DNA from: Gammaproteobacteria bacterium
GTDB taxonomy: Bacteria > Pseudomonadota > Gammaproteobacteria > Poriferisulfidales > Poriferisulfidaceae
Assembly (NCBI GenBank): GCA_026706895.1
Contig: JAPOXW010000027.1
Span: forward strand, 72,373 to 136,372
Length of the DNA: 64,000 nucleotides
Reading direction: 5' to 3'
Below are positions 4,223 through 64,000 of the stretch, one piece after another; the stretch's first letter is position 1, and each line of letters starts with the position of its first letter. The translations under genes and the position numbers were made by a program. The notes under the pieces are model-generated. The model saw nothing but the letters and a program-made list of their open reading frames with translations. It was not told where the DNA came from and did not search any database.

Positions 4223-4489
4223 TTGGAGTTGATACTGGTATTTATGGGATCCTCGAAATCACTTCACACCTCGCGTTACCAAAAGTTTCTTGTCCGTCTC
4301 CGTCAGGCCAGAGCCGAAGCTGGCATGACACAAGTTGAACTTGCGAAGGCTGTGCGACGCTCGCAAACGTGGGTGTCGAAGTGTGAGTTGGGCGAACGCC
4401 GCGTTGATGCCGTGGAATTAGAAGACATAGCCAAAGCACTCGGGAAACCTATGGAGTGGTTTGGGACCAACGCTGGAGAATCTAAGTGA
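4223..4489 (+). CDS. HTH XRE-family controller (C) protein of the R-M system
   Basis: Small HTH protein (TQVELAKAVRRSQTWVSKCELGERR). Its TGA stop overlaps the GTG start of the next ORF as GTGA. Lies in a low-GC context beside a DNA methyltransferase. Confidence 0.55.
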   Translation: MELILVFMGSSKSLHTSRYQKFLVRLRQARAEAGMTQVELAKAVRRSQTWVSKCELGERRVDAVELEDIAKALGKPMEWFGTNAGESK

Positions 4490-7311: not shown

Positions 7312-7599
7312 GGATACTTCATTTCGTAGGACAATTTATGCGGATATGTATTTTTGGGGCCGAAAGACAAAAAATTAAGTATCAACATCCAACTCGTTGG
7401 GCGCCCAACCAAAAAAAACAGCAATTTAATCCAACTTTTGTCTATCATTATGGGTCCTTTCTCGTGCCCGCAGTAGATTTATGGCAGAAAAGACGTAAAC
7501 ATATCAAGTATTGTAGTACGCACCTTATTTTTAGCTCTACATAACACCTAGAAAGGAAAATAATTGCTGGCAAATCAGATAAATAAACAAAAATCAGTC

Positions 7600-42460: not shown

Positions 42461-42524
42461 ACAGCCGCTCTTGGAGCGACGGTCTCTTGTTTCAGATTAT
42501 AGATTGAGGATTCCAGTGGAGAAT

Positions 42525-43440
42525 TCAGACCACCCTTGGTCGTATCAGAATCTTTTGAGGCGAGGTTCGCGGCTGGCTATCTGTCGCATGACCAGCGTGA
42601 TCTTCTCCGCCTGCGGGTAGGCTGCGGCAAGCTTCTCCAGGAATCGGGCCCAGTCTGTTTTCGTCCTGCGCACGGTGACTTGGGTCATCCGCTTTCCCGC
42701 CAAGGGTTCGGTGGCCAGGAACACGGTGCCCGTGCCGAGACGGCGGTACTCGTAGTCCTGACGGGCATCCCGGCCCGGGCTCATCGGTATCGGCACGCGG
42801 GTCTCCCCGATCAGCTGGCGTGGCGTCTCGTCCATGCACACCACCGGAAAGGCCGGATCGTACGGACGACGGTACACCTCGAGCACCCGCTCCATGGCCG
42901 CCACGAAATGGCCATTGCCCTGCGGCGGAATCACCCAGCCGACCCGTCGCCAAGGCTTGAGTTCGTTTTTTTTAGCACGCGACGCACCGTCTCGTAGGAG
43001 ATGCTCTCGACATAACCCAGCTCCACCGCCCGGTCCGCCAACAGCCGCAAGGACCACTGGGCATGCCCCGAGGGAGGCGCCGTGCAACTCAAGGCCACCA
43101 GGCGCGCCTCGAACTCCCCGTCCGCCTTGCGCAGGTAAGTCGGCCGCTTGCCTTGGCGACCGCCCAGGGCCGCTTCCAGTCCCTCTTCGACAAAGCGCTT
43201 CTTCACCCGGTCCACCTTGCGAAGGCTGACCCGCAGGATGCCCGCGATCGATTCCCCGGTCGTCTGGCGTTCATTGAACTTCCCTGCATCGCAGTTCAGG
43301 AGAATCAAGGCGTTGATCACTTTCTGGGAAGCGTGAGAACCCTTGCGCGTCATCTCGCCCAGGTCCGATCGCTCCGACTGATCCAGGGTTACTACATAGC
43401 GTTTCATGGCTGCCCTTCCCTCCATGCAGGATAACACGGC
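42525..43440 (-). mobile_element. IS630-family insertion sequence remnant (two-ORF transposase, 3'-truncated)
   Basis: OrfA (42931-43437) has an HTH N-terminus. OrfB (42545-43087) carries the start of the DDE domain but ends prematurely. An A8 slippery run on the coding strand (T8 on plus at 42966-42973) falls in the orfA/orfB overlap, as at IS630 programmed -1 frameshift sites. Confidence 0.75.
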
Positions 43441-43520
43441 GGGATTTTAGCACCAACTATACGACATTAGATAGATGACATGACACTAGGTGTTATCTGT
43501 AGTATATTTACCCACGATCT

Positions 43521-44711
43521 GTGCACATTTCCCCCCGAACAATGTACTTACAAAGAACAGAGGATTTGAGAAACGAGATTGTTGGCATCCTCCGCCTACA
43601 GGGCTATACCGTTACTGACCATGCCTTTCACTTAGTCGATCCTGGCAAGGAAAAAATGAGGAACCTTCATTCTAGAGCCCGAGCAGAAAAAATCTGCCGG
43701 CACATCAATTTCATGCAGTCACGTGCCTGTAAAGTCAAAGAATTCATGCTTAACAGCGATGAGGTACAGATTGACAAGATCGCCCCCCGGATTATTGAAG
43801 TTCGTGCCAACTCAATCTATGTAGATTTGTTTCGATGGTGGAACCTAGCTTGGTGGAGCCTGCCATATGAACGGACTTATGGAAGACAAATGCGGTTTAT
43901 CGTCTGGGATGAATATCATAATGCGCCAATCGGGTTGATTGGATTGCAAAGTCCGATTTTGCGCTGGAACGTTCGAGACGAACATCTTGGCCTCGCTCCG
44001 GACAAAAGGGATTATTGGATTAACCAATCCATGAATGCGCAACGATTAGGCGCGTTGCCCCCATATAACAAATTCCTCGGCGGAAAACTCGTCGCTTATC
44101 TCATGATGTCTGATGAGATTCGTAAACAGTATCGGGAAAAATACAAAAACCGTGAAACAATCATGATGAAAAGGATGATCCCCCCTCATTTGCTGTTTAT
44201 TACCACAACTGGTGCATACGGGAAAAGCAGTGTTTATAACCGGTTGCGATTCAATGAGAGTCGAGTCTGTGAATTCATCGGCTACAGTCGGGGAAACGGT
44301 TCTTTCCACATACCTGACACACTATATGAAAGTTTGATACATCATCTCGATAAAAATGGGGTCAAAGTAGGTCGGGCTTTCGGTAGCGGTCCTTCTGCAA
44401 AGATCAAAAACATAGACCGGTCAATGCGTCTTTTGGGCTTTAGAAAAGGTAGCAGTCACGGCATCAAGCGCGCTGTCTACTTATTTTCTTTCGTCCAGAA
44501 CCTCCAATCAGTGATTCAGCACAATGAAACACCAATTTGGGAACAGCGTAATATCGATGAATTGACGCAATATTGGAAAGACCGGTGGGCGATAAAAAGA
44601 AATGGTGGCTATCCGAAGGAAAAACTAAGATTCAGGAAGGAAGAGTTCATGTGCTCAATGAAACAGGATTGGGAGCGTTGCAAAAAGTTAATTGAGAGCA
44701 ATCTACCATGA
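43521..44711 (+). CDS. Hypothetical protein, first gene of an AT-rich three-gene module ending in NurA-like and HerA-like genes
   Basis: 396 aa, AT-rich, with no TM segments or signal peptide. No family recognised by eye. Its stop overlaps the next ORF's start as ATGA. Confidence 0.5.
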   Translation: MHISPRTMYLQRTEDLRNEIVGILRLQGYTVTDHAFHLVDPGKEKMRNLHSRARAEKICRHINFMQSRACKVKEFMLNSDEVQIDKIAPRIIEVRANSIYVDLFRWWNLAWWSLPYERTYGRQMRFIVWDEYHNAPIGLIGLQSPILRWNVRDEHLGLAPDKRDYWINQSMNAQRLGALPPYNKFLGGKLVAYLMMSDEIRKQYREKYKNRETIMMKRMIPPHLLFITTTGAYGKSSVYNRLRFNESRVCEFIGYSRGNGSFHIPDTLYESLIHHLDKNGVKVGRAFGSGPSAKIKNIDRSMRLLGFRKGSSHGIKRAVYLFSFVQNLQSVIQHNETPIWEQRNIDELTQYWKDRWAIKRNGGYPKEKLRFRKEEFMCSMKQDWERCKKLIESNLP

Positions 44712-45898
44712 CGCAGGAAAATAAAGGCTATGCCTACCTGCCCGAAGATCTTCTAGTGCAAATACTTGGGAAAATCCCTGAAACCGCCGACCGGTTGGCA
44801 ACAAGTATTGAATTAAATAATGAGCAGGCAACCGCCGCCCGGAGGGTTCTGAAGGAAAGGGATCTGATCAGAGTCTGTCCCGACGGAAATCATACGGAAT
44901 CCATGATGGCAGCTGATGGGGCCTGTATCGTAGAACACAAAACCAGCGCAGACATTTTGCTTGCCATTGCGGTGGGAGTGGATGGCCTTTCTGATGAAGA
45001 TTCGTCAACATGGCCAGAAGGAGAAAGGCAATATCAGCACTGGCAAGCGGTCTTGCCCCATCATGTTGCCAATCCGAGATTGTCACAGGGGATTATGTTC
45101 TTGATGGAACTCAGCATACTTGCTGGAAATGATCGCGAAGTCAAAATCATGGATGGGTCGCATTTGACTTCCATACTCAAACTCAACAGCCTCTTGAGCG
45201 CCAATGATCAGGATGCGGCAGATCAACCATATGTCCAAGCACTTTCGGATTTCTTACACGAGAATTACGAAAAAGTGATTCCAGACATTCCGAATATAAT
45301 TCGTGACGCTTTTTCCGATAGTGCGGTGGTTGGATTGACCAAATATTCTTCTTCCCGCGAGATTATTGATACAGTTTTACGAGAGACACAAATCGATATG
45401 GACGATAAAGTGTTTATGTCAATCGTCCTGAATGAGAACGAATATACGAAACCGCTCACAGTTGGACAATGCCGCAAGGAACGAGGTATGTGGAAAAACG
45501 TACACATGAAATGCAATCTGGAGATTGAGGGGGTAGACAATGACTCGGAACTAAATCCATGTCTGGAAGAGGCTATTGCCCCATTCAAGATAACGGATAA
45601 TCACGAATCAGAACTTTACTTTTGCTATTACAAGCCGAATTCATACTCATCAGCTCACAGGATTGAAATCAAACAGGAACTTGCGCTTGATTCAGGAAAA
45701 TTGGAAAAAATGTTCCGGAGTGTCAAGCGTCAAATTATCTCTCCAGAAATCAGGGAGCCATACCCCCAGTACCTAGCAGACATCATAGCCAAAAACATCT
45801 CTTTCGGTATGGAAGCGATAAATCAGGCTATCAGCCACAACCCGACTCTTAATACCCAGAAGAATTTTGATTTGATTTTTCCTTACCGCACTAACTGA
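44708..45898 (+). CDS. Probable NurA-family nuclease
   Basis: 396 aa. Assigned mainly by its conserved pairing immediately upstream of a HerA-type ATPase, plus DG[SL] acidic motifs (VGVDGLSDED, KIMDGSHL). Fold not verified. Confidence 0.4.
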   Translation: MTQENKGYAYLPEDLLVQILGKIPETADRLATSIELNNEQATAARRVLKERDLIRVCPDGNHTESMMAADGACIVEHKTSADILLAIAVGVDGLSDEDSSTWPEGERQYQHWQAVLPHHVANPRLSQGIMFLMELSILAGNDREVKIMDGSHLTSILKLNSLLSANDQDAADQPYVQALSDFLHENYEKVIPDIPNIIRDAFSDSAVVGLTKYSSSREIIDTVLRETQIDMDDKVFMSIVLNENEYTKPLTVGQCRKERGMWKNVHMKCNLEIEGVDNDSELNPCLEEAIAPFKITDNHESELYFCYYKPNSYSSAHRIEIKQELALDSGKLEKMFRSVKRQIISPEIREPYPQYLADIIAKNISFGMEAINQAISHNPTLNTQKNFDLIFPYRTN

Positions 45899-45920
45899 AA
45901 AACAAACGTTCACGACTAAC

Positions 45921-47627
45921 ATGAATATTATTTCTATTCTTGAAAGCGATAATGAACCGCTGGGAGTAGTCGGTTCTCCGAGCAGTTCTTTTGAGGCAAT
46001 TGTTGATATAAAAGAAGTGAGCGAGTCAAGCAAACTGTTGGGAGAACTGGTATGTTTTCAGGTCCCAGAAGGCGACAATCAAGTGCTTGTCCTCGGCCAG
46101 ATTACTGAAATCGAGACCAGAAACAGATGGCATGAGGAACCGTCATTTAAGGGAATCATCAAGCGGCACGGGAATCTGCCCAATCTGAGCGGTGTTGCCG
46201 ACAATCGAATCGCCAAAATTAATGTCCAATCCAGTTTCATCCTGGCCGGTGATTCTCCGCAGGCACATAAACTTGCAAACTCTCCTACAACTGGCACTCC
46301 CGTGAAGAAAATAAGCAACACCATCATGGAAGAACTCATGAGGCAATATGAGGGCCATCTTGTCTGCCTTGGGACTGCCTACGACACGGATGTCAAAGTG
46401 CCATTCTGGTTCAGACATTTTGGCAGTCCGAGTGATGGAGGAGGGGGCGACGCTTATCACATTGGGGTTTTTGGTCGAACCGGGTCCGGCAAAACAACAA
46501 CTGCCGCTAACATGATTCTAGGATACGCCCGGAATAGGGAAAACATGAGTATTTTGATACTTGACCCACAAGAGCAATTTTATGAAGACAACAATGTACT
46601 ACCCGGAGGAAACAAATTCGAGGATGCAATAAAGCAAACCGGGATGCAGTTCAAAAAGTACAAGGTCCCAGAGGATATCGCCTTGCCCAATGATGAAAAA
46701 TTGTTCAGCGAACTGCTTTTGAATTACAACTTTGTAAGAAGGGCATTCAGATTGCACTCTTCGGAGAAACAGACGCTGATGGCGGAATCGATACAAGACT
46801 ACATTACAGGAAGAATGAATGATCCCAGTTTCATAATCGGAGATGAAAATAGTGATACTCTTCTTGCCAAGATGGTTCAAAAATTCAATGACGATGAAAA
46901 ATATCTTAAAAATGTCTATTCAAGCGGCCAGTACTTCAACAATCTAAAGAGACGAATTGAGAGCATGGTGGGGGACAGTGTAGATTCTGAAGCAAAGCAA
47001 ATATGGGCGCATGTCTGTAGCCTATTTAAATCTGATGGGAAAAAGGGGCTAGCTCAAGTGGTCGAATCAGTGGTAGGCAAGCCAAACAATCTTATTGTGC
47101 TCAACATCTCGGGAAGGCATGCCACAAGCGGGATGGAGTCCCTCCAAACACTCTTCATCAAGATTATCGAAGATGCCGTGAAGAAAAGGGGGGCAGATCT
47201 ATATGCCCAAGGAAGCCAAGCAAACTGTCTAGTCGTGCTAGACGAGGCTCACCGGTTTATCAGCACATACAGCTACGACCAAGAACTCAAGGACTTGACT
47301 ACTAGCATCGTTGATGCTGTCCGGACTACGCGGAAATATGGAATTGGCTATATGTTCATTACACAAACCATTGATTCGCTCCACGAGGAAATCAGAAGAC
47401 AGATCAGAATTTTTGCATTTGGGTATGGGCTCACGAGCGGTTCGGAGTTTCGCAAGATACAAGACACCATCAATGACGATACAGGGGCTAAATTTTACCG
47501 GTCCTTCATTGATCCATCGAGTAACAACAAGTTTCCGTTTATGTTTTATGGTCCGATTTCCCCTCTTTCCTTCACGGGAACACCTCTTTTTCTGGAAGTG
47601 GGCAAACAAATCAAGGACTTCCCTTAG
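45921..47627 (+). CDS. HerA-type (FtsK/HerA superfamily, DUF87) ATPase/helicase
   Basis: 568 aa. N-terminal HAS-barrel-like region. Walker A is GVFGRTGSGKTTTAANM and Walker B is CLVVLDEAHRF. The RKYGIGYMFITQ arginine-finger/sensor block is typical of HerA/VirB4-like ATPases. Confidence 0.8.
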   Translation: MNIISILESDNEPLGVVGSPSSSFEAIVDIKEVSESSKLLGELVCFQVPEGDNQVLVLGQITEIETRNRWHEEPSFKGIIKRHGNLPNLSGVADNRIAKINVQSSFILAGDSPQAHKLANSPTTGTPVKKISNTIMEELMRQYEGHLVCLGTAYDTDVKVPFWFRHFGSPSDGGGGDAYHIGVFGRTGSGKTTTAANMILGYARNRENMSILILDPQEQFYEDNNVLPGGNKFEDAIKQTGMQFKKYKVPEDIALPNDEKLFSELLLNYNFVRRAFRLHSSEKQTLMAESIQDYITGRMNDPSFIIGDENSDTLLAKMVQKFNDDEKYLKNVYSSGQYFNNLKRRIESMVGDSVDSEAKQIWAHVCSLFKSDGKKGLAQVVESVVGKPNNLIVLNISGRHATSGMESLQTLFIKIIEDAVKKRGADLYAQGSQANCLVVLDEAHRFISTYSYDQELKDLTTSIVDAVRTTRKYGIGYMFITQTIDSLHEEIRRQIRIFAFGYGLTSGSEFRKIQDTINDDTGAKFYRSFIDPSSNNKFPFMFYGPISPLSFTGTPLFLEVGKQIKDFP

Positions 47628-47636
47628 CACAAAACA

Positions 47637-48416
47637 ATGCCTATTTACAACCGTCTGCTTCTTCTGGGTCTGCTGGCTTCACTCGGTGGAATCATACATG
47701 CCGCAGATTTGCCGTTCTCCTTGGGCGCGGACTCCGGGCTGCAGATCGCCGTGCGACTGATTCCGGACAAGACCCCAGAAGAACCGTCATCGGACGGCAG
47801 TATCGAGGAAGAGGGCGCGGAATCTCCGGAACAGGCGGAAGAAGGTGCGCCTTCCGCACAAACTCCCGGTGTCCCGGCCTCACAGGAGGACCGCGGCGAA
47901 GATCAAGGCCTTTTGGAGAGTCCGGAAGAGGGTCAGCCGGCCGCAGGCCAGGAAACCGCCGGTGAAACCGAAGGTCCCGGTATCGAAGACGGGCTCGAAA
48001 GGGAACCGGAACTTGCGGAACAGGCCAGTATCGAAGAAGGGCAAGAGAAGGATCTGTCCCGAATCGAGGCCGTGTTGAACCGTGTTGACCAGATCCTGCT
48101 GGACGCGCGAACCCGAGCCCGCAAAGAGCGGGAAGGAACAGTCGATGGCGAAGGGACAGCAGAAGAAGATTTGCCGGATTGGGAGACACAGGGCGAAGGC
48201 GAAGGGGAAGCTGCGGAGGAAGGAGCCGAACGCGGCGGAGTCGCCGAGGGCCAGGTCCCCGGCGATGTCCCGACCGGCAAGACGCGTCCGACTCACGGCT
48301 ACGAGGGTGACGACGACATCGTGACCCGGCAGGTCTGCGAACTGGCGCAACGGGAGGAAGATCCCGAGGTCCGCAAACAGCTGGAGCAAAAATGCAAGAG
48401 CCTGCGAGACAGTTAA
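47637..48416 (+). CDS. Secreted acidic low-complexity protein (first gene of the envelope operon)
   Basis: Signal peptide MPIYNRLLLLGLLASLGGIIHA, then a Glu/Gly/Pro-rich disordered region and a C-terminal Cys pair. Host-like GC. Its stop overlaps the next ORF. Confidence 0.5.
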   Translation: MPIYNRLLLLGLLASLGGIIHAADLPFSLGADSGLQIAVRLIPDKTPEEPSSDGSIEEEGAESPEQAEEGAPSAQTPGVPASQEDRGEDQGLLESPEEGQPAAGQETAGETEGPGIEDGLEREPELAEQASIEEGQEKDLSRIEAVLNRVDQILLDARTRARKEREGTVDGEGTAEEDLPDWETQGEGEGEAAEEGAERGGVAEGQVPGDVPTGKTRPTHGYEGDDDIVTRQVCELAQREEDPEVRKQLEQKCKSLRDS

Positions 48417-49576
48417 CCCTGATGGCCTTGCTGCTGGCCTTCGCCAGCGGATGCCAGACCGGCATGTCCGGCATCACCGGGGGCCTGTTCGAAGCATCGT
48501 CGGAAGAGCCGGCCGTCGAGCCGGTGCCGGAAGAATGGTATCTGGATGCCGGCATTATCCGGTTCAAGGGGGAAGTCGACCAAAAGGAAGTCGCCGAGGG
48601 GGACGTGTTCCCCCAGGTGCGGAAAGCCGAAACCCTGTACTTTCCCCAGCAGTTGCGCCAAGCGATGCTGCGCGGGGGTGGCTGGCGGCATGTGTGGGTG
48701 GTGCCGGAACGCGCCGTTCCGGACCTGCGCATCGAGGGCGCGATCCTGAAATCGAACGGCTCCGAACTGGATCTGAAAATCCTTGCCACCGACTCGACCG
48801 GCGAGCAGTGGCTCGATCGCGTCTATCGCCATGAATTCAGCGAAACCGATTACGCCGGCGAAGATCGGGCCCGGCCGATGGAGGCCCTGTTCGACCAGAT
48901 CGCAAAAGATCTCCTGGTCGAACGCGACCGCAAGGGAGTAGCGGCCATGAAGGAGATCCGCGCCGTGGCGGAACTGCGGTTCGCGGAGGAATTCGCACCG
49001 CAGGCGTTCGAACGTTACGTCAATGAAGATAAGGGCCGCACGCGCTTGGTTTCGCTGCCGGCCGAAGAAGACACGTTGTACCAGCTGGTGCTGCAAATCA
49101 AGGAGCGCGACGACCTCTTCATCGAGACCCTGCAGCAATACTCGGAGGGTTTTTCGGAAAAGATCGATGCGTCGTATCGGGACTGGGCACGGCAGAGCTT
49201 CTACGAACGCCGTGCGCATGACGAGGGAGTTGCCGCCAGCGTAACGCAGGGGCTTCTGAGCGCCCTGGCCATCATTGGCGGAGTCGTGGTGGCGGCCGAC
49301 TCAGGGTCTTCCCCGGAAGCCCGCCAGCTTGGCCAAGTGCTGGTGGGGGCCGGCGCCTACGGCGCCTATGATGCCTACCAGGACTACGAAGCAACGGAAA
49401 TCCACGAGGCCGCGCTCAAGGAGCTCGGGCAGTCGCTCGACCTGGAGGTGGAACCTCAGGTCGTGCAAGTAGAGAACCAGACACGCACGCTTACCGGGTC
49501 GGTCGAAGACCAGTACCAGCAGTGGCACGAAATCCTGAACGAAATCTACCTGTCGGAACGTGGCGCCCTGAACTGA
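48392..49576 (+). CDS. Lipoprotein of unknown function
   Basis: Signal peptide with lipobox (LLLAFASGC). 394 aa with no recognised domain. Translationally coupled on both sides. Confidence 0.55.
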   Translation: MQEPARQLTLMALLLAFASGCQTGMSGITGGLFEASSEEPAVEPVPEEWYLDAGIIRFKGEVDQKEVAEGDVFPQVRKAETLYFPQQLRQAMLRGGGWRHVWVVPERAVPDLRIEGAILKSNGSELDLKILATDSTGEQWLDRVYRHEFSETDYAGEDRARPMEALFDQIAKDLLVERDRKGVAAMKEIRAVAELRFAEEFAPQAFERYVNEDKGRTRLVSLPAEEDTLYQLVLQIKERDDLFIETLQQYSEGFSEKIDASYRDWARQSFYERRAHDEGVAASVTQGLLSALAIIGGVVVAADSGSSPEARQLGQVLVGAGAYGAYDAYQDYEATEIHEAALKELGQSLDLEVEPQVVQVENQTRTLTGSVEDQYQQWHEILNEIYLSERGALN

Positions 49577-50301
49577 TTTCGGTTGCACTGGCGCTGGCGG
49601 CGGGACTGGCCGCAGGAACCGCCGCGGCCGAGAGCATCCAGGATCAGGCGCTTCGTGCCATGCTTGATTCGAACTGGGCCCGGGCGGTCGAGTTGTGGGC
49701 GGAAGTGGACGGGCGACGAGCCCGGGAATACCTTCAGCAGGCTCGGGCGGAACTCCAGTTTCAGCGAACCCGGTCCCTGCTGAACGAGGCCCGTGCAGCC
49801 CGACAGAAAGAAGACTGGGCGGCGGCCGATGCCGCCTACCTCAAGGCGCTGGCCATCTCCCCCCATTTGAAGTCGGCGCACCAAGGCCGAGAACAGGTTG
49901 CCCTGTACATCGAGGCATACCGGCGGCTGGATGCATTGAAACTGCCGGAAGGCCTCTACGACAAAGTCATCCGCGCCCGAGCGAAAGAGTGGCTTGCCTT
50001 CATCCGAGAAAAACAACTCGATGACCGGAAGATAGACAAGGCCCGCACGGGACTTGTCGAGGCATTGAAGCTTGCGCAAACCCCGGTCTCCCTGATCCTG
50101 ACTTCGGACAACCAGTCCGAGATTGAAATTTACGGCATCGGGAAACTCGGACGGCTCGAACGCCAGACCCTGAAGTTGGTCCCGGGCGATTACATCGTCG
50201 TCGCCAACCGACCCGGATACCGAGATACGCGCGCGACGTTGAGAATACGCCCTGGTAAGGCTCTTACCCTGGACATTCGATGCACGGAGTCGATCCGGTG
50301 A
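49522..50301 (+). CDS. Secreted protein with C-terminal PEGA domain
   Basis: N-terminal hydrophobic signal-like segment, a helical/TPR-like middle, and a C-terminal PEGA-type beta-sandwich motif (LKLVPGDYIVVANRPGYRDTRATLRIRPGK). Confidence 0.5.
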   Translation: MARNPERNLPVGTWRPELISVALALAAGLAAGTAAAESIQDQALRAMLDSNWARAVELWAEVDGRRAREYLQQARAELQFQRTRSLLNEARAARQKEDWAAADAAYLKALAISPHLKSAHQGREQVALYIEAYRRLDALKLPEGLYDKVIRARAKEWLAFIREKQLDDRKIDKARTGLVEALKLAQTPVSLILTSDNQSEIEIYGIGKLGRLERQTLKLVPGDYIVVANRPGYRDTRATLRIRPGKALTLDIRCTESIR

Positions 50302-52115
50302 TTCTCGAGCACGAACCGATCCAGGCCAAACCATATCGGCCGCCCAAGCGGGAAAGGCGCCGCAAGCGACCTTCGGCCCCCCGATTTCGCGGGGCGGGAC
50401 TGGCGATTCTGATCCTGGCACTGATAACGGCAGGCGCCTGGTACGCCATGGAACAAGCGCAACTCATCAGCTTCGAGACCGACCCCGCAACCGCCACGGT
50501 GCATCTCGAGAGCCCGCACATGATGATGAACGGGCAAGCCTTGCTCTGGCGCGGGCAACATGTCGCGAATGTGGAAGCAGAAGGCCACCATCCCCGGCAG
50601 ATCGAATTCCAGGCGGGTGGAGACGCGCCGCGCACCGTGCAGGTCACTCTGGACCCCTTGCCGGGCAAACTCCGGGTCTCCACGACCCCTGAAACCGAGG
50701 GGGAAGTCCGGGTCGACGGCGAACACGCCGGGAAGATCGGAGAAATACTGGAGGATTTCTCTCCGGGCCGGCATGTCGTGCAGGTCAGTGTGGAGGGCTT
50801 CGAAATGCACCGGCAAACGGTAGAAATCGAGGGATACGGCCAATTGACCGAGATCGAGATTTCGCTCCAGAAAGTCGCGGAACCCGCCTTGTTGACGATT
50901 TCCAGTACCCCCGAGGCCGCGGACATATTGATCGATGGCACCTGGCGGGGGCGGACCCCGAAACGGGTCGTATTGACCCCGGGGGCCAAGGTGGAAGTCG
51001 CCCTGTTATTTCCTGGCCATACCCCGGATCGGCAGACTCTAGAGTTGAAGTCCGGCCGGCAAAACCACGCAGTGACCCTGACGCCGCGACTCGGCGCCCT
51101 TGAACTCTGGCCGATGCCGGCCAATGCGACGGTCCGGATCGGCGGGCAGGTGGAACTTCGGCGCCAGTTGCAGTTGACGCAGCGAACCCATACCGTGGAG
51201 GTTTCCGCGCCGGGCTATGTAACGAAGAAATACACCGTGGTGCCTCATCCGGACACCCCGAAGCAGCTTTTCGCCGTCTTGCAGTCGCAAGCGAAGGTCG
51301 AACAATCCCGGCGCCAGAAGCATGAACAGGATCTCGGGCTGGTCTTCGTCGAGTTCCAGCCCCGCGACTCGTTCGAACTCGCGACCACGCGCCGCCGAAT
51401 CCCGGTGCGCCTAACCCGACCATTCGCGATCATGGACAAGGAAGTCACCAACGCCCTATACCGACGCTACCGGGCCGAACATGATTCCGGAGAAGTGTTC
51501 GGCAAGCGCCTGGGCCGCCCAAGCCAACCCGTGGTGCGGATCAGCTGGGCGGATGCGGCATTGTTCGCGAACTGGATGAGCGGGCGGGCGGGGGTTGCGC
51601 CGTTCTACCGGGTGCGCGACGGGAAAATCGTGGGATTCGACGCGCAGGCAACCGGATACCGGCTGCCGAGTGAGGCCGAATGGGTCTGGTTGACCCGTTC
51701 CGGAAAGCGGTATGCCTGGGGCGACTTCATGCCGCCCCCGGACCGGTTCGGCAATCTGGCGGACGCTTCCGCCTCCGACATCGTGCAGCCGACGCTGGAA
51801 GGATACAACGACGGGTACGCCGTCAGTGCCGACGTCGGAAGCTTCCCGCCTTCGGGCCAGGGGTTGTATGATTTGCCGGGCAACGTGGCGGAATGGATGC
51901 ACGACGTGTTTCTCGACAAGCTGCGGGTCTCGGCCCGCCCGGAGACGGAGCGAGTCAACCCGCTGGGCGAGGCCAGCGGGCGGTTCTATGTCATCCGGGG
52001 ATTCAGCTGGCGCGACGGCGGGCGCAAGGAGTTGAGCCTGAACAACCGCCGCTACGACCGCGATCCCAAGGACGATGTGGGATTTCGGCTGGCTTATTAC
52101 CTGGACAAGCCATGA
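50280..52115 (+). CDS. Membrane-anchored PEGA-repeat protein with C-terminal FGE-sulfatase domain
   Basis: 611 aa with a basic N-terminus and one TM helix (AGLAILILALITAGAWYAM). Three or four PEGA repeats (e.g. ISSTPEAADILIDGTWRGRTPKRVVLTPGAKVEV). The FGE-sulfatase hallmarks are RISWADAALFANW, YRLPSEAEWVWL, GNVAEWMHD, RVIRGFSW and DVGFRLA. Confidence 0.8.
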   Translation: MHGVDPVILEHEPIQAKPYRPPKRERRRKRPSAPRFRGAGLAILILALITAGAWYAMEQAQLISFETDPATATVHLESPHMMMNGQALLWRGQHVANVEAEGHHPRQIEFQAGGDAPRTVQVTLDPLPGKLRVSTTPETEGEVRVDGEHAGKIGEILEDFSPGRHVVQVSVEGFEMHRQTVEIEGYGQLTEIEISLQKVAEPALLTISSTPEAADILIDGTWRGRTPKRVVLTPGAKVEVALLFPGHTPDRQTLELKSGRQNHAVTLTPRLGALELWPMPANATVRIGGQVELRRQLQLTQRTHTVEVSAPGYVTKKYTVVPHPDTPKQLFAVLQSQAKVEQSRRQKHEQDLGLVFVEFQPRDSFELATTRRRIPVRLTRPFAIMDKEVTNALYRRYRAEHDSGEVFGKRLGRPSQPVVRISWADAALFANWMSGRAGVAPFYRVRDGKIVGFDAQATGYRLPSEAEWVWLTRSGKRYAWGDFMPPPDRFGNLADASASDIVQPTLEGYNDGYAVSADVGSFPPSGQGLYDLPGNVAEWMHDVFLDKLRVSARPETERVNPLGEASGRFYVIRGFSWRDGGRKELSLNNRRYDRDPKDDVGFRLAYYLDKP

Positions 52116-52330
52116 AACGGTTCTGGTGGGTATCCCTGTACGCGGCGACGTCTCTGGCGTGGGCCGAAGAGCCTCCTGCACCGCAAGCGGAAGACGAGGA
52201 GCGCGAAGTCATCGAAGTCCTGACCGAAGAGGACCTCAAGCGGGAAATCCCACAGATCACGCTCAAGCAATTGACCCCGAAAGAAACCATTTCCCTTGAT
52301 CAAGCCGTGGATATGCCCAGTGACATTTGA
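52112..52330 (+). CDS. Small secreted acidic protein
   Basis: 72 aa. Signal peptide MKRFWWVSLYAATSLAWA then an acidic tail. ATG overlaps the upstream stop as ATGA. Confidence 0.4.
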   Translation: MKRFWWVSLYAATSLAWAEEPPAPQAEDEEREVIEVLTEEDLKREIPQITLKQLTPKETISLDQAVDMPSDI

Positions 52331-53201
52331 ATTGAACAATCTGACCGGGCGCTGGCGCGAACACGAAGTGTTCTGGCAATTGCTGGCATTAGCGGTGTCG
52401 TTCGTGCTGGTGCATGCAGCATATGAACTGGTGGTGCGACCCGTCGCCTACGAGGAACTGCAACGTCAGGCCGTCGCCGAGGAACAAGCCGAAATCGCAT
52501 CGCCAACGCTCGGCGCACGGGTCTCCGTGGTCGTCAAGGACTACGAGCAGGAAGCCTGTTTTGTCGCCCTGTTCTGGGCGCTCGCCATCATGTGGATGAA
52601 GCTGATGAAGCTGCGCTTCGCGCGAAGGCTGCTGAGCCAGCGTGGCCGACAAAACGAGGAAAGTTTCCTGGAAACCCGGGAAACCGATCTGGTCCTGCCT
52701 CAGGCGCACGACCGGGCGCGTTTCACCGACGTGCGAGAGCATGTGCGAATGCAAGGCTACGGCAGTACCGTGCTCTATCGGGCTGCCGATGCCTGTCTGG
52801 ATCGCTTCTTCACGACGCATTCCGTATCGGACGCCACTGCGGCCATGAAGGCCAGTTGCGAGATGGAGTCGGACCGGCAGGACACCGAACTGGCGCTGGT
52901 GCGCTACCTGACCTGGGCCATTCCGTCGCTTGGATTCATCGGCACGGTGCGCGGGATCGGTGCAGCCCTGGGGCAGGCCGAAGAAGCCACGCGCGGCAAC
53001 ATCGGACCGGTGACGGAAAGCCTTGGCGTGGCATTCAATTCAACGTTTGTCGCCCTGCTGATCAGCCTGTTCATCATGCTGCTGCTGCACAAACTGCAGG
53101 AAGCCCAGGAGTCGCTGGTACTGGATGCCCAGGAGCATTGCCAGCACCACCTGCTGCGTTACCTGCGGGAGCGGACGCGGACGGATGAGCCTTCTTCTTA
53201 G
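52296..53201 (+). CDS. MotA/TolQ/ExbB-family proton channel protein
   Basis: 301 aa, three TM helices. The C-terminal signature LTWAIPSLGFIGTVRGIGAALG...IGPVTESLGVAFNSTFVALLISLF aligns with ExbB/TolQ (GLFGTVWGI...APGIAEAL.ATAIGL.AAIP). The start is approximate and overlaps the upstream ORF. Confidence 0.8.
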   Translation: MIKPWICPVTFELNNLTGRWREHEVFWQLLALAVSFVLVHAAYELVVRPVAYEELQRQAVAEEQAEIASPTLGARVSVVVKDYEQEACFVALFWALAIMWMKLMKLRFARRLLSQRGRQNEESFLETRETDLVLPQAHDRARFTDVREHVRMQGYGSTVLYRAADACLDRFFTTHSVSDATAAMKASCEMESDRQDTELALVRYLTWAIPSLGFIGTVRGIGAALGQAEEATRGNIGPVTESLGVAFNSTFVALLISLFIMLLLHKLQEAQESLVLDAQEHCQHHLLRYLRERTRTDEPSS

Positions 53202-54096
53202 GATCGACAGCTACGCGCTGGCACAGCCCGACGGCACCGACTGGCGGGTCGAGTGGTGCCTTGCCCATCGGGATTCAAAAGACGGTTGGCGATTCGGTAA
53301 AGACGCCGGTGAACGGCTGCAGCCCCGACGCACCGACAACGAAAACAACGAATACCTGGAAACACCGGAGACGGTAGAAGGCCAAGGCACATCGAATAGC
53401 GACCTTGCGTATCTACAGTTACGGGGATTCCTGCCGGAAGAGGAAAACTCGATCGATCTTTCGGTGAGCGGAGGAATCGACCGGTCCCGGCTCGAATGTC
53501 TGCTGGGTGTTCTGGAAGCCTTGAGCTACACACCCCGAAGTGTATTCCCGACCGCGCTGCTGGCGGCCCGGAACCTTGAGCCCGGACGCTACGGCATTAT
53601 TGAACTTGGACGCAGCCGCAGTTGGATCAGTGCCGTTGACGTCCAGCCGGGTCGTGCGCGACTGGAATCGGTCCAGGATTACGGGGATTTCGGCTTCTAT
53701 CACCTCTTCACCCAATGGGTGGAGAACGCGGCGGAAGCCTTCGCCGCCCAGCACCGTTTCGACATACATCGCAACCTCGCGACAAACCGCGGACAACTGT
53801 TCGAACAAATGTGCCAAGGCTTCGCCGGGAAATCCGGACAGATCCAGCTCAATCTGGATTCCCGGCCCGTGACGCTGGACGAAAAAGTCTTTCAAGCCCG
53901 CTGGCCGAAGTCTTCTCTCGACACGGAGGGGCTGGGCCTCCTGCTGCTGCCTCCTCTGACACGGGCGTTGCCGCTGCCGGAACAGGGGTTGGATCTCCCT
54001 CTCTGTGCCAACCCCGCGCCTCGGGCCGTCTTCAACCTGGACGCCTCCGTGCCGGAAGACGGACAAGCCCACCGTTGCGTGGCTCTCTCCTGCTGA
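53185..54096 (+). CDS. Hypothetical soluble protein embedded between the ExbB-like and ExbD-like genes
   Basis: About 304 aa from MSLLLRIDSY. No TM segment and no recognised domain. Coupled to both neighbours. Confidence 0.45.
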   Translation: MSLLLRIDSYALAQPDGTDWRVEWCLAHRDSKDGWRFGKDAGERLQPRRTDNENNEYLETPETVEGQGTSNSDLAYLQLRGFLPEEENSIDLSVSGGIDRSRLECLLGVLEALSYTPRSVFPTALLAARNLEPGRYGIIELGRSRSWISAVDVQPGRARLESVQDYGDFGFYHLFTQWVENAAEAFAAQHRFDIHRNLATNRGQLFEQMCQGFAGKSGQIQLNLDSRPVTLDEKVFQARWPKSSLDTEGLGLLLLPPLTRALPLPEQGLDLPLCANPAPRAVFNLDASVPEDGQAHRCVALSC

Positions 54097-55140
54097 ATGT
54101 CCAGACGCCGCCGCAGCCGTTTCCTGAACCCGTTCGGCCTAGCTTTCCTGGATGTCATGTCCTGCGGGCTGGGGGCTGCGGTCCTGTTGTTCCTGATTAT
54201 CGACCACAACCTAACCGAACTGGCGCAGGCATCGGAGAGCGGCGAGGGAGATGTGCAACTGCTGGAGCAATCGATCCAGGAACAGGAAGAACTGATCACC
54301 GAGCACCGCAGACAGATGCGGCAACTGCAGCGCGAGCTGGAAAGCCTGGCACAGCAGCGCGTGGCCGCCATCACCACCCAAGCCGAACTTCGCGCCCGCC
54401 AACCGAAGGCGTCCGATACGGCTCGACTTGAACGTGAACTGCGCGAGCGCAAGAAGAAACTCCAAGAAGCGGAGAAAAGCAAGCAACTGAGGGCGAAAGA
54501 AGGAGAAGGGCAACGCCAGTACGTAGCCGGCTTCCGAGTCGAGGGCCGTCGCATTCTGATCCTGTTGGATCGATCGGCCAGCATGCAGGACGAGCGAATC
54601 GCCACGATCATCCGAAACAAGTTTCTCCCGGTGAAATACCAGATCGAGAGCTACAAGTGGCGCTGGGCGCGTTCCATCCTCGAGTGGGTTCTCTCGCACC
54701 TGCCGCAAGAGGCGCAATACCAGGTCTGGGGGTTCAGCACGACGGCAGCGCCAGCGTTGCCGAAGAGCGGGTGGATTCCGGCAAAAGACGGGAAACGGAT
54801 GGAAGAGGTGGTTTCGGCCGTGCAGGGCTGGGTCCCCTCAGGAGGAACCCGCCTCGATACGACCCTCAAGAAGATCGCCCAGATCAAGCCAAGGCCGGAC
54901 GCGGTCTATCTGATTACGGACGGCCTGCCGACGCAGGGAAAATCCTGGTTCAAGAAAAACCGGGTCAGCCCTTCCCGGCGCATGGAGTTTTTCCGAGAAG
55001 CAACGGGAAGCATCGCAGGCCCGCCTTTCAACATCGTCCTGCTTCCGCTTGAAGGCGATCCGGCGGCAGCCGGGGCTTACTGGGGATTTGCGATGAGGAC
55101 GAACGGGCAATTCCTGGCCCCGGCGGAGGACTGGCCATGA
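54097..55140 (+). CDS. ExbD/TolR-like TM anchor, coiled coil and periplasmic vWA domain protein (paralog 1)
   Basis: N-terminus RRRRSRFLNPFGLAFLDVMSCGLGAAVLLFLII matches the ExbD/TolR TM helix with conserved Asp (cf. PLIDVMLVLLIIFM). A long coiled coil follows. The vWA MIDAS motif is LLDRSASM (DxSxS), followed by YLITDG. Confidence 0.7.
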   Translation: MSRRRRSRFLNPFGLAFLDVMSCGLGAAVLLFLIIDHNLTELAQASESGEGDVQLLEQSIQEQEELITEHRRQMRQLQRELESLAQQRVAAITTQAELRARQPKASDTARLERELRERKKKLQEAEKSKQLRAKEGEGQRQYVAGFRVEGRRILILLDRSASMQDERIATIIRNKFLPVKYQIESYKWRWARSILEWVLSHLPQEAQYQVWGFSTTAAPALPKSGWIPAKDGKRMEEVVSAVQGWVPSGGTRLDTTLKKIAQIKPRPDAVYLITDGLPTQGKSWFKKNRVSPSRRMEFFREATGSIAGPPFNIVLLPLEGDPAAAGAYWGFAMRTNGQFLAPAEDWP

Positions 55141-56102
55141 GGCGCGTCCGCCGGCAAGCCGACAACCGTTTGTCGTTCCTTGACGTGGTCAGCTGCGGGT
55201 TCGGGGCCATGGTGTTGCTGATCCTGATTACCAAAAACACCGTGGGCGAGCCGGTCGAAGACCTTCGAGCCCAAATCGAAGCGCTGCAAGAACAACTCGC
55301 ACGCGTCATCCAAGTCCGGGCAAGTCTGGCGGCCGAACAATTTTCGGCGCAAGCCCGGGTACACGCCCAGCAGGAGAAACTGCAGGACGACCGGAGGGCC
55401 GTAGAAGAAGCGCGGCAGGCGAGCGCCAGCGCCCAGGCGCAGGCCTTGATCGAAGCAGACCTGAAGAGCGCTCTGCAGCGCCTCAACGAAGAAATGCGGC
55501 GGCTGAACCTGACTGCATCCGAATCGGACGTGATCGGCGGCATCCCGGCCGACAGCGAATACATCATCTTTATCGTCGACACGTCCGGCAGCATGAAACG
55601 GTTTGCCTGGAAGGCCGCCAGACAGCAGTTGGTGGCCCTACTGGACGCCTACCCGAAAGTGCGCGGACTCCAGGTGATGAACGACATGGGCGCATACATG
55701 TTCAGCGGCTACCAGGGGCGCTGGATCCCGGACACGCCCGCACGGCGGAAGATCCTCCTGCAGCGTTTTGATTCCTGGCATTCGTACAGCAATTCGAGCC
55801 CCGTCGAAGGCATCCTGGAAGCCATCAAGCGGTTCCGCATGAAGTCCGACAAGATCAGCCTGTACATCTTCGGCGACGAATACACCGGCGAGTCGATCCA
55901 GTGGGTCATCGACACGGTCGAGGATCTCAACCACCGGGATGGGAAGCGGCAGGTCCGCATTCATGCGGTCGGGTTCTTCACCCGCGCGCAGATCGAGAAG
56001 ATCGACCCGAAATATGCCGACACGACAAGCCGATTCGCGGCATTGATGCGGGAGTTGACCCGGCGCAACGGAGGGACTTTCCTAGGCGTCGAAGTGGACT
56101 GA
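55137..56102 (+). CDS. ExbD/TolR-like TM anchor, coiled coil and periplasmic vWA domain protein (paralog 2)
   Basis: N-terminus LSFLDVVSCGFGAMVLLILI (ExbD-like, conserved Asp), then a coiled coil. The vWA MIDAS motif is IFIVDTSGSM (DxSxS). Start overlaps the paralog-1 stop. Confidence 0.7.
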   Translation: MRRVRRQADNRLSFLDVVSCGFGAMVLLILITKNTVGEPVEDLRAQIEALQEQLARVIQVRASLAAEQFSAQARVHAQQEKLQDDRRAVEEARQASASAQAQALIEADLKSALQRLNEEMRRLNLTASESDVIGGIPADSEYIIFIVDTSGSMKRFAWKAARQQLVALLDAYPKVRGLQVMNDMGAYMFSGYQGRWIPDTPARRKILLQRFDSWHSYSNSSPVEGILEAIKRFRMKSDKISLYIFGDEYTGESIQWVIDTVEDLNHRDGKRQVRIHAVGFFTRAQIEKIDPKYADTTSRFAALMRELTRRNGGTFLGVEVD

Positions 56103-60623: not shown

Positions 60624-60750
60624 CGGTGCATTTTACTTGCTTGAGACGGCAAGTTTAGGCATTTCAGGCGATCGGTTGCTGAACTTGACTCAGCATCGAA
60701 CAAAGTGTATCTTACTCTTGTCTTACATTGTTTCAACCTTGTGAACTGCG

Positions 60751-61026
60751 ATGCCCCGGCATGAACCACTCACCACCACCGTCTCGACAAAGGGCCAGGT
60801 CGTCCTGCCCAAAGTCATCCGCAGGGCATTGCGCTGGAGAACTGGAACGCGGCTGATCGTGGAAAACACCACCAAGGGCGTCTTGCTCAGGCCGGATTCC
60901 GCATTTGCCTCGACACGACCGGAGGATGTCTTCGGATGCCTTGCCTTCGACGGCCCGCCCAAATCCCTTGCCGAAATGGAGGCCGGGATCCTGACGGAAG
61001 CGAAGCGGCGCCATGCAGGCGATTGA
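60751..61026 (+). CDS. AbrB/MazE-type antitoxin (VapB-like)
   Basis: 91 aa. SpoVT/AbrB swapped-hairpin N-terminus (VSTKGQVVLPKVIRRAL). Overlaps the downstream PIN gene. Confidence 0.65.
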   Translation: MPRHEPLTTTVSTKGQVVLPKVIRRALRWRTGTRLIVENTTKGVLLRPDSAFASTRPEDVFGCLAFDGPPKSLAEMEAGILTEAKRRHAGD

Positions 61027-61399
61027 CACCAATGTCGTGGTCCGCTACCTGACCGGGGACGACCCCGATCAGGCCACCCGTGCGAGAGGGATTATCGACA
61101 TGGAAGAGGTTTTTGTCTGCACGACCGTCCTGCTTGAAACCGCCTGGGTGTTGCGTAGCGTTTACGGCTTTGCCGGAGAGGAAGTCGCGGTGGCCTTACG
61201 CGCCTTCTCAGGGCTGCCGAGTGTTGCGGTGGAAGACCCCGCCCTGCTCGCCGTGGCACTTGATCGTGCAGAAAAAGGCATGGACTTCGCCGACGCGCTG
61301 CACCTCGGGGCAGCCGCCCACTGCGAGATGATGTTCACGTTTGACCGCCAGTTCATCGAAACAGCGAAAGACGCTCCGGTCAGGGTGGCGGAACCCTAA
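61013..61399 (+). CDS. PIN-domain toxin VapC
   Basis: 128 aa beginning MQAIDTNVVVRYL, with acidic residues at conserved PIN positions. Confidence 0.75.
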   Translation: MQAIDTNVVVRYLTGDDPDQATRARGIIDMEEVFVCTTVLLETAWVLRSVYGFAGEEVAVALRAFSGLPSVAVEDPALLAVALDRAEKGMDFADALHLGAAAHCEMMFTFDRQFIETAKDAPVRVAEP

Positions 61400-61555
61400 G
61401 CTCCGTTTCGGCTGTAGCAGCCGATGTGCCGCGCCGGACAATGAAATGCTTTGGGAACGACACACTAGAAGATTCCCTTTAGTATTCGCACAACAGTTTG
61501 CCAGACCGTCGGGATTTGGCTAGAATACGCGCCCCCTGACGGTTCAATCCTCCTC

Positions 61556-61867
61556 ATGTACGCAGTCATCGAAACCGGCGGCAAGCAATACCGTGTCCAG
61601 CCCGGCGACATCATCCGGGTGGAGCGGCTTGCGGGCGAGCCTGGCGACAAGATCGAATTCGACCGCGTGCTGCTGGTGGCGGACAAGAAAAAAACCCATA
61701 TCGGCACGCCGCATGTGGAAGGGGGACGCGTCGCCGCTCAAGTGACCAGCCACGGCCGAGCGCCGAAGATCGAGGTGGTCAAATTCCGGCGGCGGAAGAA
61801 CTCCCGAACCCGCACCGGGCACCGTCAGCATTGGACCGAACTCGAAATTAAAGACATCCAGGTGTGA
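61556..61867 (+). CDS. rplU: 50S ribosomal protein L21
   Basis: [18 protein letters not shown], the canonical L21 N-terminus. Confidence 0.9.
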
Positions 61868-61874
61868 GGCGACA

Positions 61875-62135
61875 ATGGCACACAAGAAATCAGGCGGCAG
61901 TTCCAGGAACGGACGCGATTCCGAGTCCAAGCGGCTTGGCGTAAAGCGCTTCGGCGGCCAGCAGGTTCGCGCCGGAACCATTCTGGTGCGTCAGCGCGGC
62001 ACTCGCTACCGGCCTGGGTCTTTCGTCGGCTGCGGCCGCGACCACACCCTGTTCGCCAAGGTAGACGGAACCGTAGAATTCCGCTCCCGCGGGCGCGAAA
62101 GTCGCACGTACGTATCGGTCAATCCGGCCGGATAA
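61875..62135 (+). CDS. rpmA: 50S ribosomal protein L27
   Basis: [28 protein letters not shown], the canonical L27 sequence. Confidence 0.9.
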
Positions 62136-62220
62136 TCCATCCGGCCTGGCCTTCCGGCATACCCAAGTGCCGGAATTCCTGAAATAAAATCGCCGGCCGA
62201 AAGGATTTTCGGCGTGGGAA

Positions 62221-63552: not shown

Positions 63553-63565
63553 GGGCAGATTATGA

Positions 63566-64000
<435 letters not shown>

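Follow-up and report, generated by a model that had tools for sequence, protein, structure and literature searches.

What kind of device is encoded by an operon that places a TolQ/ExbB-like channel subunit beside two vWA proteins and a membrane-anchored PEGA/FGE-sulfatase protein, and does such a device have a described counterpart? In this study, the question was investigated on a window of 64,000 nucleotides (nt) from a Gammaproteobacteria bacterium (contig JAPOXW010000027.1), in which nine consecutive plus-strand open reading frames (ORFs), here called g1 to g9, occupy positions 47637-56102. The closest relative of g8, with 96% identity, is found in Candidatus Porisulfidus sp. TsSOB. An earlier reading of this DNA, referred to below as the original prediction, had described the nine genes as one translationally coupled envelope operon for which no counterpart was known. 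Our analysis indicates that g1-g9 are a single operon for a trans-envelope machine, and that its core falls within a class put forward in 2025 on in silico grounds. The machine is probably a proton-driven motor of the 5:2 type, TolQ-like and with a vWA-tipped axle, and its role would be envelope housekeeping or the control of surface structures.

The operon and its putative motor genes

With reference to the gene layout, each of the nine ORFs overlaps or abuts the next, and the identical nine genes stand in the annotation of the source assembly. The overlaps amount to 25 nt for g1/g2, 55 nt for g2/g3, 11 nt for g5/g6, 17 nt for g6/g7 and 4 nt each for g3/g4, g4/g5 and g8/g9, while g7 and g8 abut exactly. 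The coupling claimed for the nine genes was recovered at the stated coordinates, and the gene order is kept in about 60 related loci. The content of guanine and cytosine (GC) across g1-g9 is 0.60-0.63, which is host-like and matches the surrounding genome. The ratios of nonsynonymous to synonymous substitution rates (dN/dS), taken against a congener (L009) at dS 0.4-1.1, were 0.23, 0.13, 0.15, 0.14, 0.15, 0.10, 0.20, 0.08 and 0.08 for g1 to g9 in order. All nine genes are under purifying selection, and this range of 0.08-0.23 signifies that they are real coding genes, including the low-complexity g1 and the g5 of 72 amino acids (aa). A scan for promoters and terminators gave counts no different from the shuffled expectation and is uninformative. 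The start of g3 is a GTG at 49522, which gives the protein its hydrophobic export segment and an N-terminus (MARNP..R.LP) common to a relative at the 48% level (L003); a GTG start at 49552 was ruled out, as the codon there is GTC. An alternative ATG start of g4 lies at 50280.

We observed that, apart from the PEGA of g3, all the domains named in the original prediction, namely FGE-sulfatase and PEGA in g4, MotA_ExbB in g6 and vWA in g8 and g9, exceed their Pfam gathering scores. The only TolQ-like ORF in the window is g6, which matches MotA_ExbB with 45.9 bits (E 5.8e-12, cut-off 22.9) and the NCBIfam TolQ family with E 3.2e-6, under that family's cut-off. Its alignment with TolQ and ExbB of E. 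coli spans the second and third transmembrane (TM) helices, and pairs GTVWGI of TolQ with GTVRGI of g6 and IATAI with FNSTF. The threonines of the g6 motifs GTVRGI and FNST, which align with T145/T178 of TolQ and T148/T181 of ExbB, are both kept, and the assignment to a channel of the MotA/TolQ/ExbB family holds. Conservation was counted by iterative searches with hidden Markov models (HMMs) of 86 retrieved related loci. FNST or a close variant occurs in 80 of the 82 g6 homologues and GTVRGI in 64 of the 82, the latter figure counting exact-pattern matches only; a verrucomicrobial homologue carries both motifs.

Of the four hydrophobic segments in g6, the most N-terminal is additional relative to TolQ, and the chain ends about 30 aa beyond the last TM helix. 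The extra helix comprises residues ~17-39, and among Gammaproteobacteria it displays a conserved Q..(S/A)....VHA.Y..RP motif, the His of which is missing in the verrucomicrobial homologue. This helix might occupy the peripheral site of TolQ/ExbB that is used by the TolA/TonB helices.

Downstream, g8 and g9 were confirmed as vWA proteins by Pfam matches above the gathering score (VWA_2, 29.8 bits, for g8; VWA, 27.9 bits, E 3.3e-6, for g9), and as paralogues by a BLASTP identity of 23% over 287 aa (E 2e-11). Each consists of a basic N-terminal tail, one hydrophobic helix, a coiled coil and a vWA domain. The two helices, FLDVMSCGLGAAVLLFLII and FLDVVSCGFGAMVLLILIT, contain no His and so are without the SHLS/His motif of TonB/TolA. 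They harbor an aspartate, Asp19 in FLDVMSCG of g8 (residues 17-24) and Asp16 in FLDVVSCG of g9 (residues 14-21), which no full-length homologue of either protein in the 86 loci lacks, one N-terminally truncated g9 ORF being unreadable. The metal-ion-dependent adhesion site (MIDAS) of the vWA domain is intact in both, with DRSAS (residues 158-162) plus T274/D275 in g8 and DTSGS (residues 148-152) in g9. The DxSxS pattern was recorded in 166 of 166 g8 and g9 homologues, and DTSGS itself in 81 of 81 g9 homologues. An alignment of 25 sequences of g8 relatives, down to 36% identity, revealed invariant residues in the helix (F17, L18, D19, M21, C23, G24 and G26) and in the MIDAS (D158, S160, S162, T274 and D275), as well as a C-terminal DWP of which W346 and P347 are invariant and D345 is nearly so. 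The g8 family profile retrieved only coiled-coil proteins from the PDB (ATP synthase b, keratins; positions 23-165), matches that are noise and informative only for a long helical stalk of ~100-110 residues.

The two vWA genes always co-occur (85 loci), with a MotA/ExbB gene adjacent in 82-85 loci, and the spacers between their Asp and MIDAS co-vary (Spearman 0.62, 66 loci, uncorrected for phylogeny), that of g8 being usually 12 residues longer. Our data therefore bear out two paralogous proteins with a TM Asp, a coiled coil and an intact DxSxS, standing in the position of ExbD/TolR. In both proteins the distance between the basic N-tail and the Asp equals that seen for D23 of TolR and D25 of ExbD. 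This part of the earlier label "ExbD-like" stood, while homology did not: no family of the ExbD/TolR/MotB type was detected at E<=1 in the nine proteins (Pfam, NCBIfam) or in the related loci, and TolR, ExbD and MotB of E. coli used as queries gave no match in the window. Since FLDVM was all that aligned, and not significantly, the label is to be read as a positional and functional analogy.

The partner proteins of the envelope and cytoplasm

Upstream of the channel gene, the anticipated membrane-anchored PEGA/FGE protein (g4), lipoprotein (g2, with an ASGC lipobox) and acidic signal-peptide proteins (g1 and g5) are all present. The Pfam scores of g4 are 105 bits (E 6.6e-30) for FGE-sulfatase and 66.8 bits (E 1.6e-18) for PEGA, and its homologue in locus L047 harbors 4-5 PEGA repeats (E 1.3e-54). 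Its N-terminus is a TM helix and not a lipobox. Catalytic FGE/SUMF1 enzymes possess a cysteine pair, CxxxxC, near the C-terminus of the domain. Among 64 g4 homologues the FGE-like domain holds no or one Cys, the single one sitting in an FCNWLS motif, and CxxxxC is absent, suggesting that the domain is non-catalytic and serves for binding or as a scaffold. The FGE domain of GldK/PorK is likewise non-catalytic.

The best named matches of this domain are indeed GldK/PorK (NCBIfam GldK, 68.9 bits, E 4.8e-19) and GldJ (24 bits), and the GldJ/GldK likeness put forward earlier stands to that extent. It raises the reading of a device like gliding or the type IX secretion system (T9SS), where the motor would act as GldLM and g4 as GldK/GldJ in moving or exporting a surface adhesin. 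The operon and the GldLM/PorKLMN system both display a motor of the kind driven by the proton-motive force, a long periplasmic stalk, an FGE-sulfatase-fold protein and lipoproteins with ring-forming folds. Moreover, vWA adhesins function in Myxococcus gliding (PMC9946355), and gliding has been raised as a possibility for a related, SHLS-type family of vWA transducers (PMC12204202). However, the g4 scores are far under the cut-offs of 350 for GldK and 383-458 for GldJ, the protein is TM-anchored with PEGA repeats and is no lipoprotein, the motor is TolQ-like rather than GldL-like, and the stalk is a coiled coil with vWA and not GldM. GldL/M/N, SprA/PorV, an outer-membrane barrel or cargo bearing a C-terminal sorting domain (CTD) was found in none of the examined loci, and no translocon is present. 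We consider this reading quite unlikely.

The neighbouring g3 matches Pfam weakly (TPR_2, 0.013; CarboxypepD_reg, 0.0056; PEGA, E 0.036). Its family HMM also matches the PEGA region of g4 homologues with 3.3e-14, and because of this cross-match the PEGA domain that had been assigned to g3 is supported despite its weak Pfam score.

The lipoprotein g2 belongs to a family of more than 1663 proteins. A search of its profile against PDB sequences gave no match, and its fold came from a structure search instead: in the AlphaFold2 (AF2) model, with a predicted local distance difference test (pLDDT) score of 79, the N-terminal domain is predicted to have the PelC/CsgG/TolB-N/FlgT-type fold, with matches including PqiC, LpoB and LptE. 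The C-terminal half displays a long helical hairpin and a Gly-rich hydrophobic segment (aa 284-305). Many proteins of this fold assemble into rings that lie in the outer membrane or beneath it, and by analogy g2 may be a ring-forming outer-membrane lipoprotein of the typical kind.

No family was found for the acidic g1 in Pfam, NCBIfam or PADLOC; most of its relatives are lipoproteins, and it shares with them a conserved C-terminal helix motif, DDDxVxRQxxExAxxExDPxxR. The small g5 has an invariant C-terminus, P.E.IS.D..V.FP.DI-COOH, and its verrucomicrobial counterpart ends in EMPSDV.

The gene between the channel and the vWA pair, g7, had been called a soluble orphan, a description that has to be replaced. 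No Pfam match was obtained for it. A profile built on 42 relatives matches the nucleotide-binding domains of Hsp70 proteins (best 7.5e-4, with a long series of others), and g7 displays the two-lobed Hsp70/actin-type (ASKHA) fold. The C-terminus of the profile matches FHA domains (KIF13B, 2.6e-4; EssC; Ki-67). Most relatives are ~440 aa long with this C-terminal FHA, which is missing from the g7 of the window. D8 is invariant, but the second phosphate loop is degenerate, with the sequence ELGRSRS in g7 of the window and HLDxQLHQ in the Halieaceae proteins.

The FHA domain on most g7 relatives, being a module of phospho-threonine dependent signalling, brings in the reading of an envelope complex that is static or serves for signalling. 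Here the TolQ-like protein would not be a rotary motor, and the operon would form either a Bat-like vWA/TPR scaffold or a trans-envelope sensor reporting to the cytoplasm through g7. Membrane proteins with vWA and TPR domains exist without motors in the Bat operon, where they accompany a MoxR AAA+ ATPase and DUF58. In addition, one distant locus has a phosphatase of the PP2C family with a cyclic-nucleotide (cNMP)-binding domain nearby, and no force-bearing output is identifiable. On the other hand, the pair of pore threonines and the helix Asp are kept across phyla, which is hard to explain without ion conduction; neither AAA+/MoxR nor DUF58, the Bat markers, was detected in the operon or the related loci; and the FHA domain is dispensable in Porisulfidus. 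A complex of this static or signalling kind is unlikely in our judgement.

Distribution, prior description and the proposed motor

Relatives of g8 are extensively dispersed. At least 534 species genomes have one (one genome scanned per species), and the carriers include Halieaceae, Porticoccaceae, Pseudohongiellaceae, SAR92 and the cultured Kineobactrum sediminis. Within the 86 loci, g1 and g2 were each found in 61, g3 in 73, g4 in 78, g5 in 62, g6 in 82, and g7, g8 and g9 in 85 each. The order g1-g9 on one strand was seen in about 60 loci, which is essentially every one with sufficient flank, so the ExbB-like, paired vWA and FGE-PEGA genes are co-conserved in other genomes. When 1.84 billion representatives of 50% identity clusters were searched exhaustively, 202 g8-like clusters were obtained at E<=1e-30, among them Verrucomicrobiota (Puniceicoccaceae K14, Opitutae). 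The contig from Puniceicoccaceae displays, in order, g3, g4, a g5-like gene, two extra genes, g6, a g7-like gene of 499 aa, g8 and g9. The HMM E-values are 1.4e-27 for g3, 3.8e-100 for g4, 3.5e-60 for g6, 4.7e-92 for g8 and 2.4e-64 for g9; its g5 and g7 are positional counterparts and not HMM matches. We recognized g3-g9 as a core kept across the two phyla, suggesting that the PEGA/FGE-like protein and the cytoplasmic g7 are functionally tied to the motor.

In the verrucomicrobial locus (L090), the genes between g5 and g6 encode proteins of 746 and 338 aa and replace g1/g2 (4323-7584). A gene for a CsgG-family lipoprotein, of the same fold class as the g2 N-domain, adjoins this operon (L090 12982-13944).

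Porisulfidus oxidises sulfur and lives in association with sponges. The operon is retained in its ~1.6 Mb chromosomes, at one chromosomal site. Its operon is a trimmed form of a cluster of about 12 genes (for example L047 422-1684 and 12072-14842, L005 510-1742, and L047 8694-10004 for g7). In Porisulfidus g3 has 259 aa versus ~510 in relatives (TM, TPR and PEGA-like), g4 605 versus ~690, and g7 303 versus ~440; the loss of the g7 FHA domain and the shortening of g3 and g4 are consistent with genome reduction in a symbiont of this size. Members of the larger cluster with no counterpart in the window are a TPR protein with a signal peptide, encoded upstream and showing a weakly TonB_C-like end (E 0.0026, 41 loci), a pair of lipoproteins of no known family encoded downstream (63 and 57 loci), whose profiles from relatives (d1, d2) gave no match against the PDB, and, often, an M48 peptidase (39 loci).

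A previous study (PMC12204202; Mol Biol Evol 2025, Fig. 4c,d) predicted a class, found in Proteobacteria and Verrucomicrobia, in which a TolQ-like gene is closely linked to genes for vWA proteins, mostly in heterologous pairs. These proteins ("TPH-vWA") possess a TolR-like transpore helix that bears a conserved Asp, and they lack the SHLS motif. AlphaFold 3 (AF3) models in that study place the Asp pair within a Thr ring, its reference locus is that of Idiomarina loihiensis, and no phenotypes were reported. The window exhibits the features of this class, with a MotA_ExbB gene by the vWA genes, no tolR, exbD or motB, the helix Asp, a heterologous pair and the pore threonines, and the taxonomic range (Gammaproteobacteria, Puniceicoccaceae, Opitutae) agrees as well. 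For the core, the earlier claim of no described counterpart is accordingly withdrawn. It stands for the accessory set, which seems not to have been described so far in literature open to searching: the words PEGA and sulfatase occur 0 times in the text of PMC12204202, which also leaves the Hsp70/FHA protein and the lipoproteins unmentioned; our literature search on the combination of PEGA, FGE-sulfatase, ExbB, vWA, FHA and Hsp70 found nothing, and a link between vWA and a TolQ-like motor was met only in that paper.

Comparison with characterized machines agrees with the original prediction in setting the operon apart from Tol-Pal, Ton, Mot, Zorya and Bat. It resembles Tol-Pal in its TolQ-family channel with both pore threonines, a partner Asp at the position of TolR D23, TPR and lipoprotein accessories and a trans-envelope logic. 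Unlike Tol-Pal, the operon has no TolR periplasmic domain, no TolA with its SHLS helix, no TolB beta-propeller and no Pal/OmpA domain, its output being a vWA/MIDAS pair fused to the axle, and its channel subunit has the additional N-terminal TM helix. With ExbB-ExbD-TonB it shares a MotA_ExbB channel and a TM Asp partner, and the relatives' TPR protein has the weak TonB_C-like end, whereas an ExbD domain, TonB and a TonB-dependent receptor are missing from the operon. The Agl-Glt gliding machinery of Myxococcus also has a TolQ/TolR-type motor, heterologous TolR-like subunits and a vWA/MIDAS force-bearing contact; its vWA adhesin, CglB, is however a separate outer-membrane lipoprotein (PMC9946355) and is not fused to the motor axle, and no Glt proteins are encoded in the operon.

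The proton-driven motor that we favour may be pictured as follows. Five copies of g6 would form a ring in the inner membrane, and its pore would hold a heterodimeric axle replacing TolR/ExbD/MotB, made of the N-terminal helix of g8 and that of g9 with their protonatable Asp residues. The matched coiled coils (~100 residues, from which we infer ~15 nm) would carry the two vWA heads across the periplasm, where an acidic ligand may be held by their MIDAS metal sites. As protons flow, the axle would be rotated or pulled, exerting force on a ligand-bearing partner, for which the g4/g3 PEGA/FGE-like scaffold, the ring-fold lipoprotein g2, the acidic g1 and the C-terminus of g5 are candidates. At the cytoplasmic face, g7 probably binds the motor or regulates it. 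Envelope housekeeping or surface-structure control is the most likely physiological role, rather than phage defence. Gene content, domain identities, the conserved residues, the g2 and g7 folds, co-conservation and chromosomal inheritance are observed, whereas the 5:2 stoichiometry, the heterodimer, the rotation, the ligand and the role are inferred.

Several points weigh against this motor. The likeness of g8 and g9 to ExbD/TolR amounts to about five residues and is statistically non-significant: Pfam ExbD gave nothing for g8/g9 at E<=1, and with hhalign the g8 family reached a probability of 0.3% against E. coli TolR and aligned with ExbD at FLDVM alone. The covariation of the g8/g9 spacers ignores phylogeny. 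The degenerate nucleotide-binding loops of g7, as read from the protein sequence, may signify an inert protein. As to force output, neither an outer-membrane beta-barrel nor an obvious substrate is found among the encoded proteins. The match to the class of PMC12204202 rests on class features and range, and not on orthology with the Idiomarina reference, and the family as a whole is known from sequences and predicted models.

A more far-reaching reading would have the operon represent a distinct, phylum-spanning proton-driven machine, with the g3-g9 core, a vWA-headed axle, a GldK-like/PEGA scaffold, the g2 ring, control by the Hsp70/FHA protein and the g5 C-terminus as the MIDAS ligand. We put this forward tentatively, somewhat short of an even chance. 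Candidate jobs of such a class would be to tether the outer membrane, to control an adhesin or surface layer, or to sense mechanical stress on the envelope. To our knowledge, the ion-driven 5:2 motors that are understood are few (Mot, Ton, Tol, Gld, Agl and Zor), and the machine, if real, would be the first 5:2 motor whose axle protein itself bears a ligand-binding vWA head. What this study adds is the g3-g9 core, the periphery of nine to twelve genes, the folds of g2 and g7, the non-catalytic FGE-like domain and the case against defence. A parts list with candidate partners is now available to experimenters, and cultivable carriers exist in Kineobactrum sediminis, Parahaliea spp. and Pseudohongiella acticola.

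Table 1. Genes and motifs of the operon, and genes of the low-GC regions of the window
Feature	Positions	Strand	Length (aa)	Description	Basis
g1	47637-48416	+	259	Secreted acidic low-complexity protein, signal peptide	Translation; family in 61 loci
g2	48392-49576	+	394	Lipoprotein	AF2 model, fold search
g2 lipobox	48443-48454	+		ASGC	
g3	49522-50301	+	259	Exported/membrane-anchored; helical/TPR-like middle, PEGA-like C-terminal beta domain	
g4	50298-52115	+	605	TM helix, about four PEGA repeats, C-terminal FGE-sulfatase-like domain	Pfam
g5	52112-52330	+	72	Small secreted acidic protein, signal peptide	Translation, C-terminal alignment
g5 C-terminus	52313-52327	+		MPSDI	
g6	52320-53201	+	293	TolQ/ExbB-like channel subunit	Pfam MotA_ExbB, alignment to E. 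coli TolQ/ExbB
g6 extra TM helix	52368-52436	+			
g6 pore-Thr motif	52941-52958	+		GTVRGI	
g6 pore-Thr motif	53034-53045	+		FNST	
g7	53185-54096	+	303	Predicted cytoplasmic, Hsp70/actin-type (ASKHA) fold	Profile search
g8	54097-55140	+		TM helix, coiled coil, predicted periplasmic vWA	Pfam VWA_2, VWA_3; 25-sequence alignment
g8 helix motif	54145-54168	+		FLDVMSCG	
g8 MIDAS	54568-54582	+		DRSAS	
g9	55137-56102	+	321	g8 paralogue	BLASTP vs g8; Pfam VWA
g9 helix motif	55176-55199	+		FLDVVSCG	
g9 MIDAS	55578-55592	+		DTSGS	
DDE_3 transposase fragment	42545-43087	-		In the insertion, plus one small ORF	
DruA/DUF4338	43521-44711			In the insertion	PADLOC 2.7e-81
NurA-like gene	44708-45898			In the insertion	
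HerA/DUF87	45921-47627			In the insertion; ends 9 nt before g1 start	
MamI-type restriction endonuclease	within 4486-7311	+		Restriction-modification pair	6.5e-41
N6 DNA methylase	within 4486-7311	-		Restriction-modification pair	1.7e-28

The neighbouring insertion and the defence reading

The operon begins 9 nt 3' of a DruA(DUF4338)-NurA-HerA set of defence genes, and this position keeps alive the suggestion of a Zorya-like anti-phage system, whose channel and partners would detect that infection perturbs the envelope and would set off a response. A MotA/ExbB-family core, with a pentamer-type protein and a TM-Asp partner, is common to the operon and Zorya, and one marginal PADLOC match to ZorA (E 0.033) was recorded for g6. 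Nevertheless, the defence genes are part of a strain-specific insertion that is missing in strains ~90-94% nucleotide-identical across the flanks, and in one relative (L003) the operon stands at the same chromosomal site (ubiE-type methyltransferase, xerC, dapF) without it. PADLOC gave no other family for the nine proteins beyond coiled-coil noise, Pfam detected no nuclease, helicase or other effector domain in them, and the ZorA tail and the peptidoglycan-binding domain of ZorB are lacking. The operon is chromosomal, syntenic and vertically inherited, with a fixed order in about 60 loci, relatives in at least 534 species genomes of two phyla and host-like composition; it is kept in symbiont genomes of ~1.6 Mb, and no relative was found among the 2.9 million viral contigs and 72,556 plasmids searched. 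Anti-phage defence of the Zorya kind is thus very improbable, and we found no support for this candidate role.

The insertion itself covers ~5.1 kb (42507-47651) of low GC (0.44-0.48), where two relatives (L007, L008) have only ~47 bp. Both the native DNA upstream and the initial few codons of g1 have been replaced by it, suggesting that read-through from the island may now reach the operon.

Elsewhere in the window, a restriction-modification pair lies at 4486-7311 in DNA of low GC (0.457). A Fic/DOC-family protein (2.3e-18) is encoded at 18784-20136, in a stretch of lowered GC (0.50-0.53). In the source annotation, positions ~60700-63600 (L001 16655-19351) harbor a MazE/PIN toxin-antitoxin pair, and the same stretch carries a Cas12f1-like TNB (TnpB-type) gene near the genes for ribosomal proteins L21/L27.

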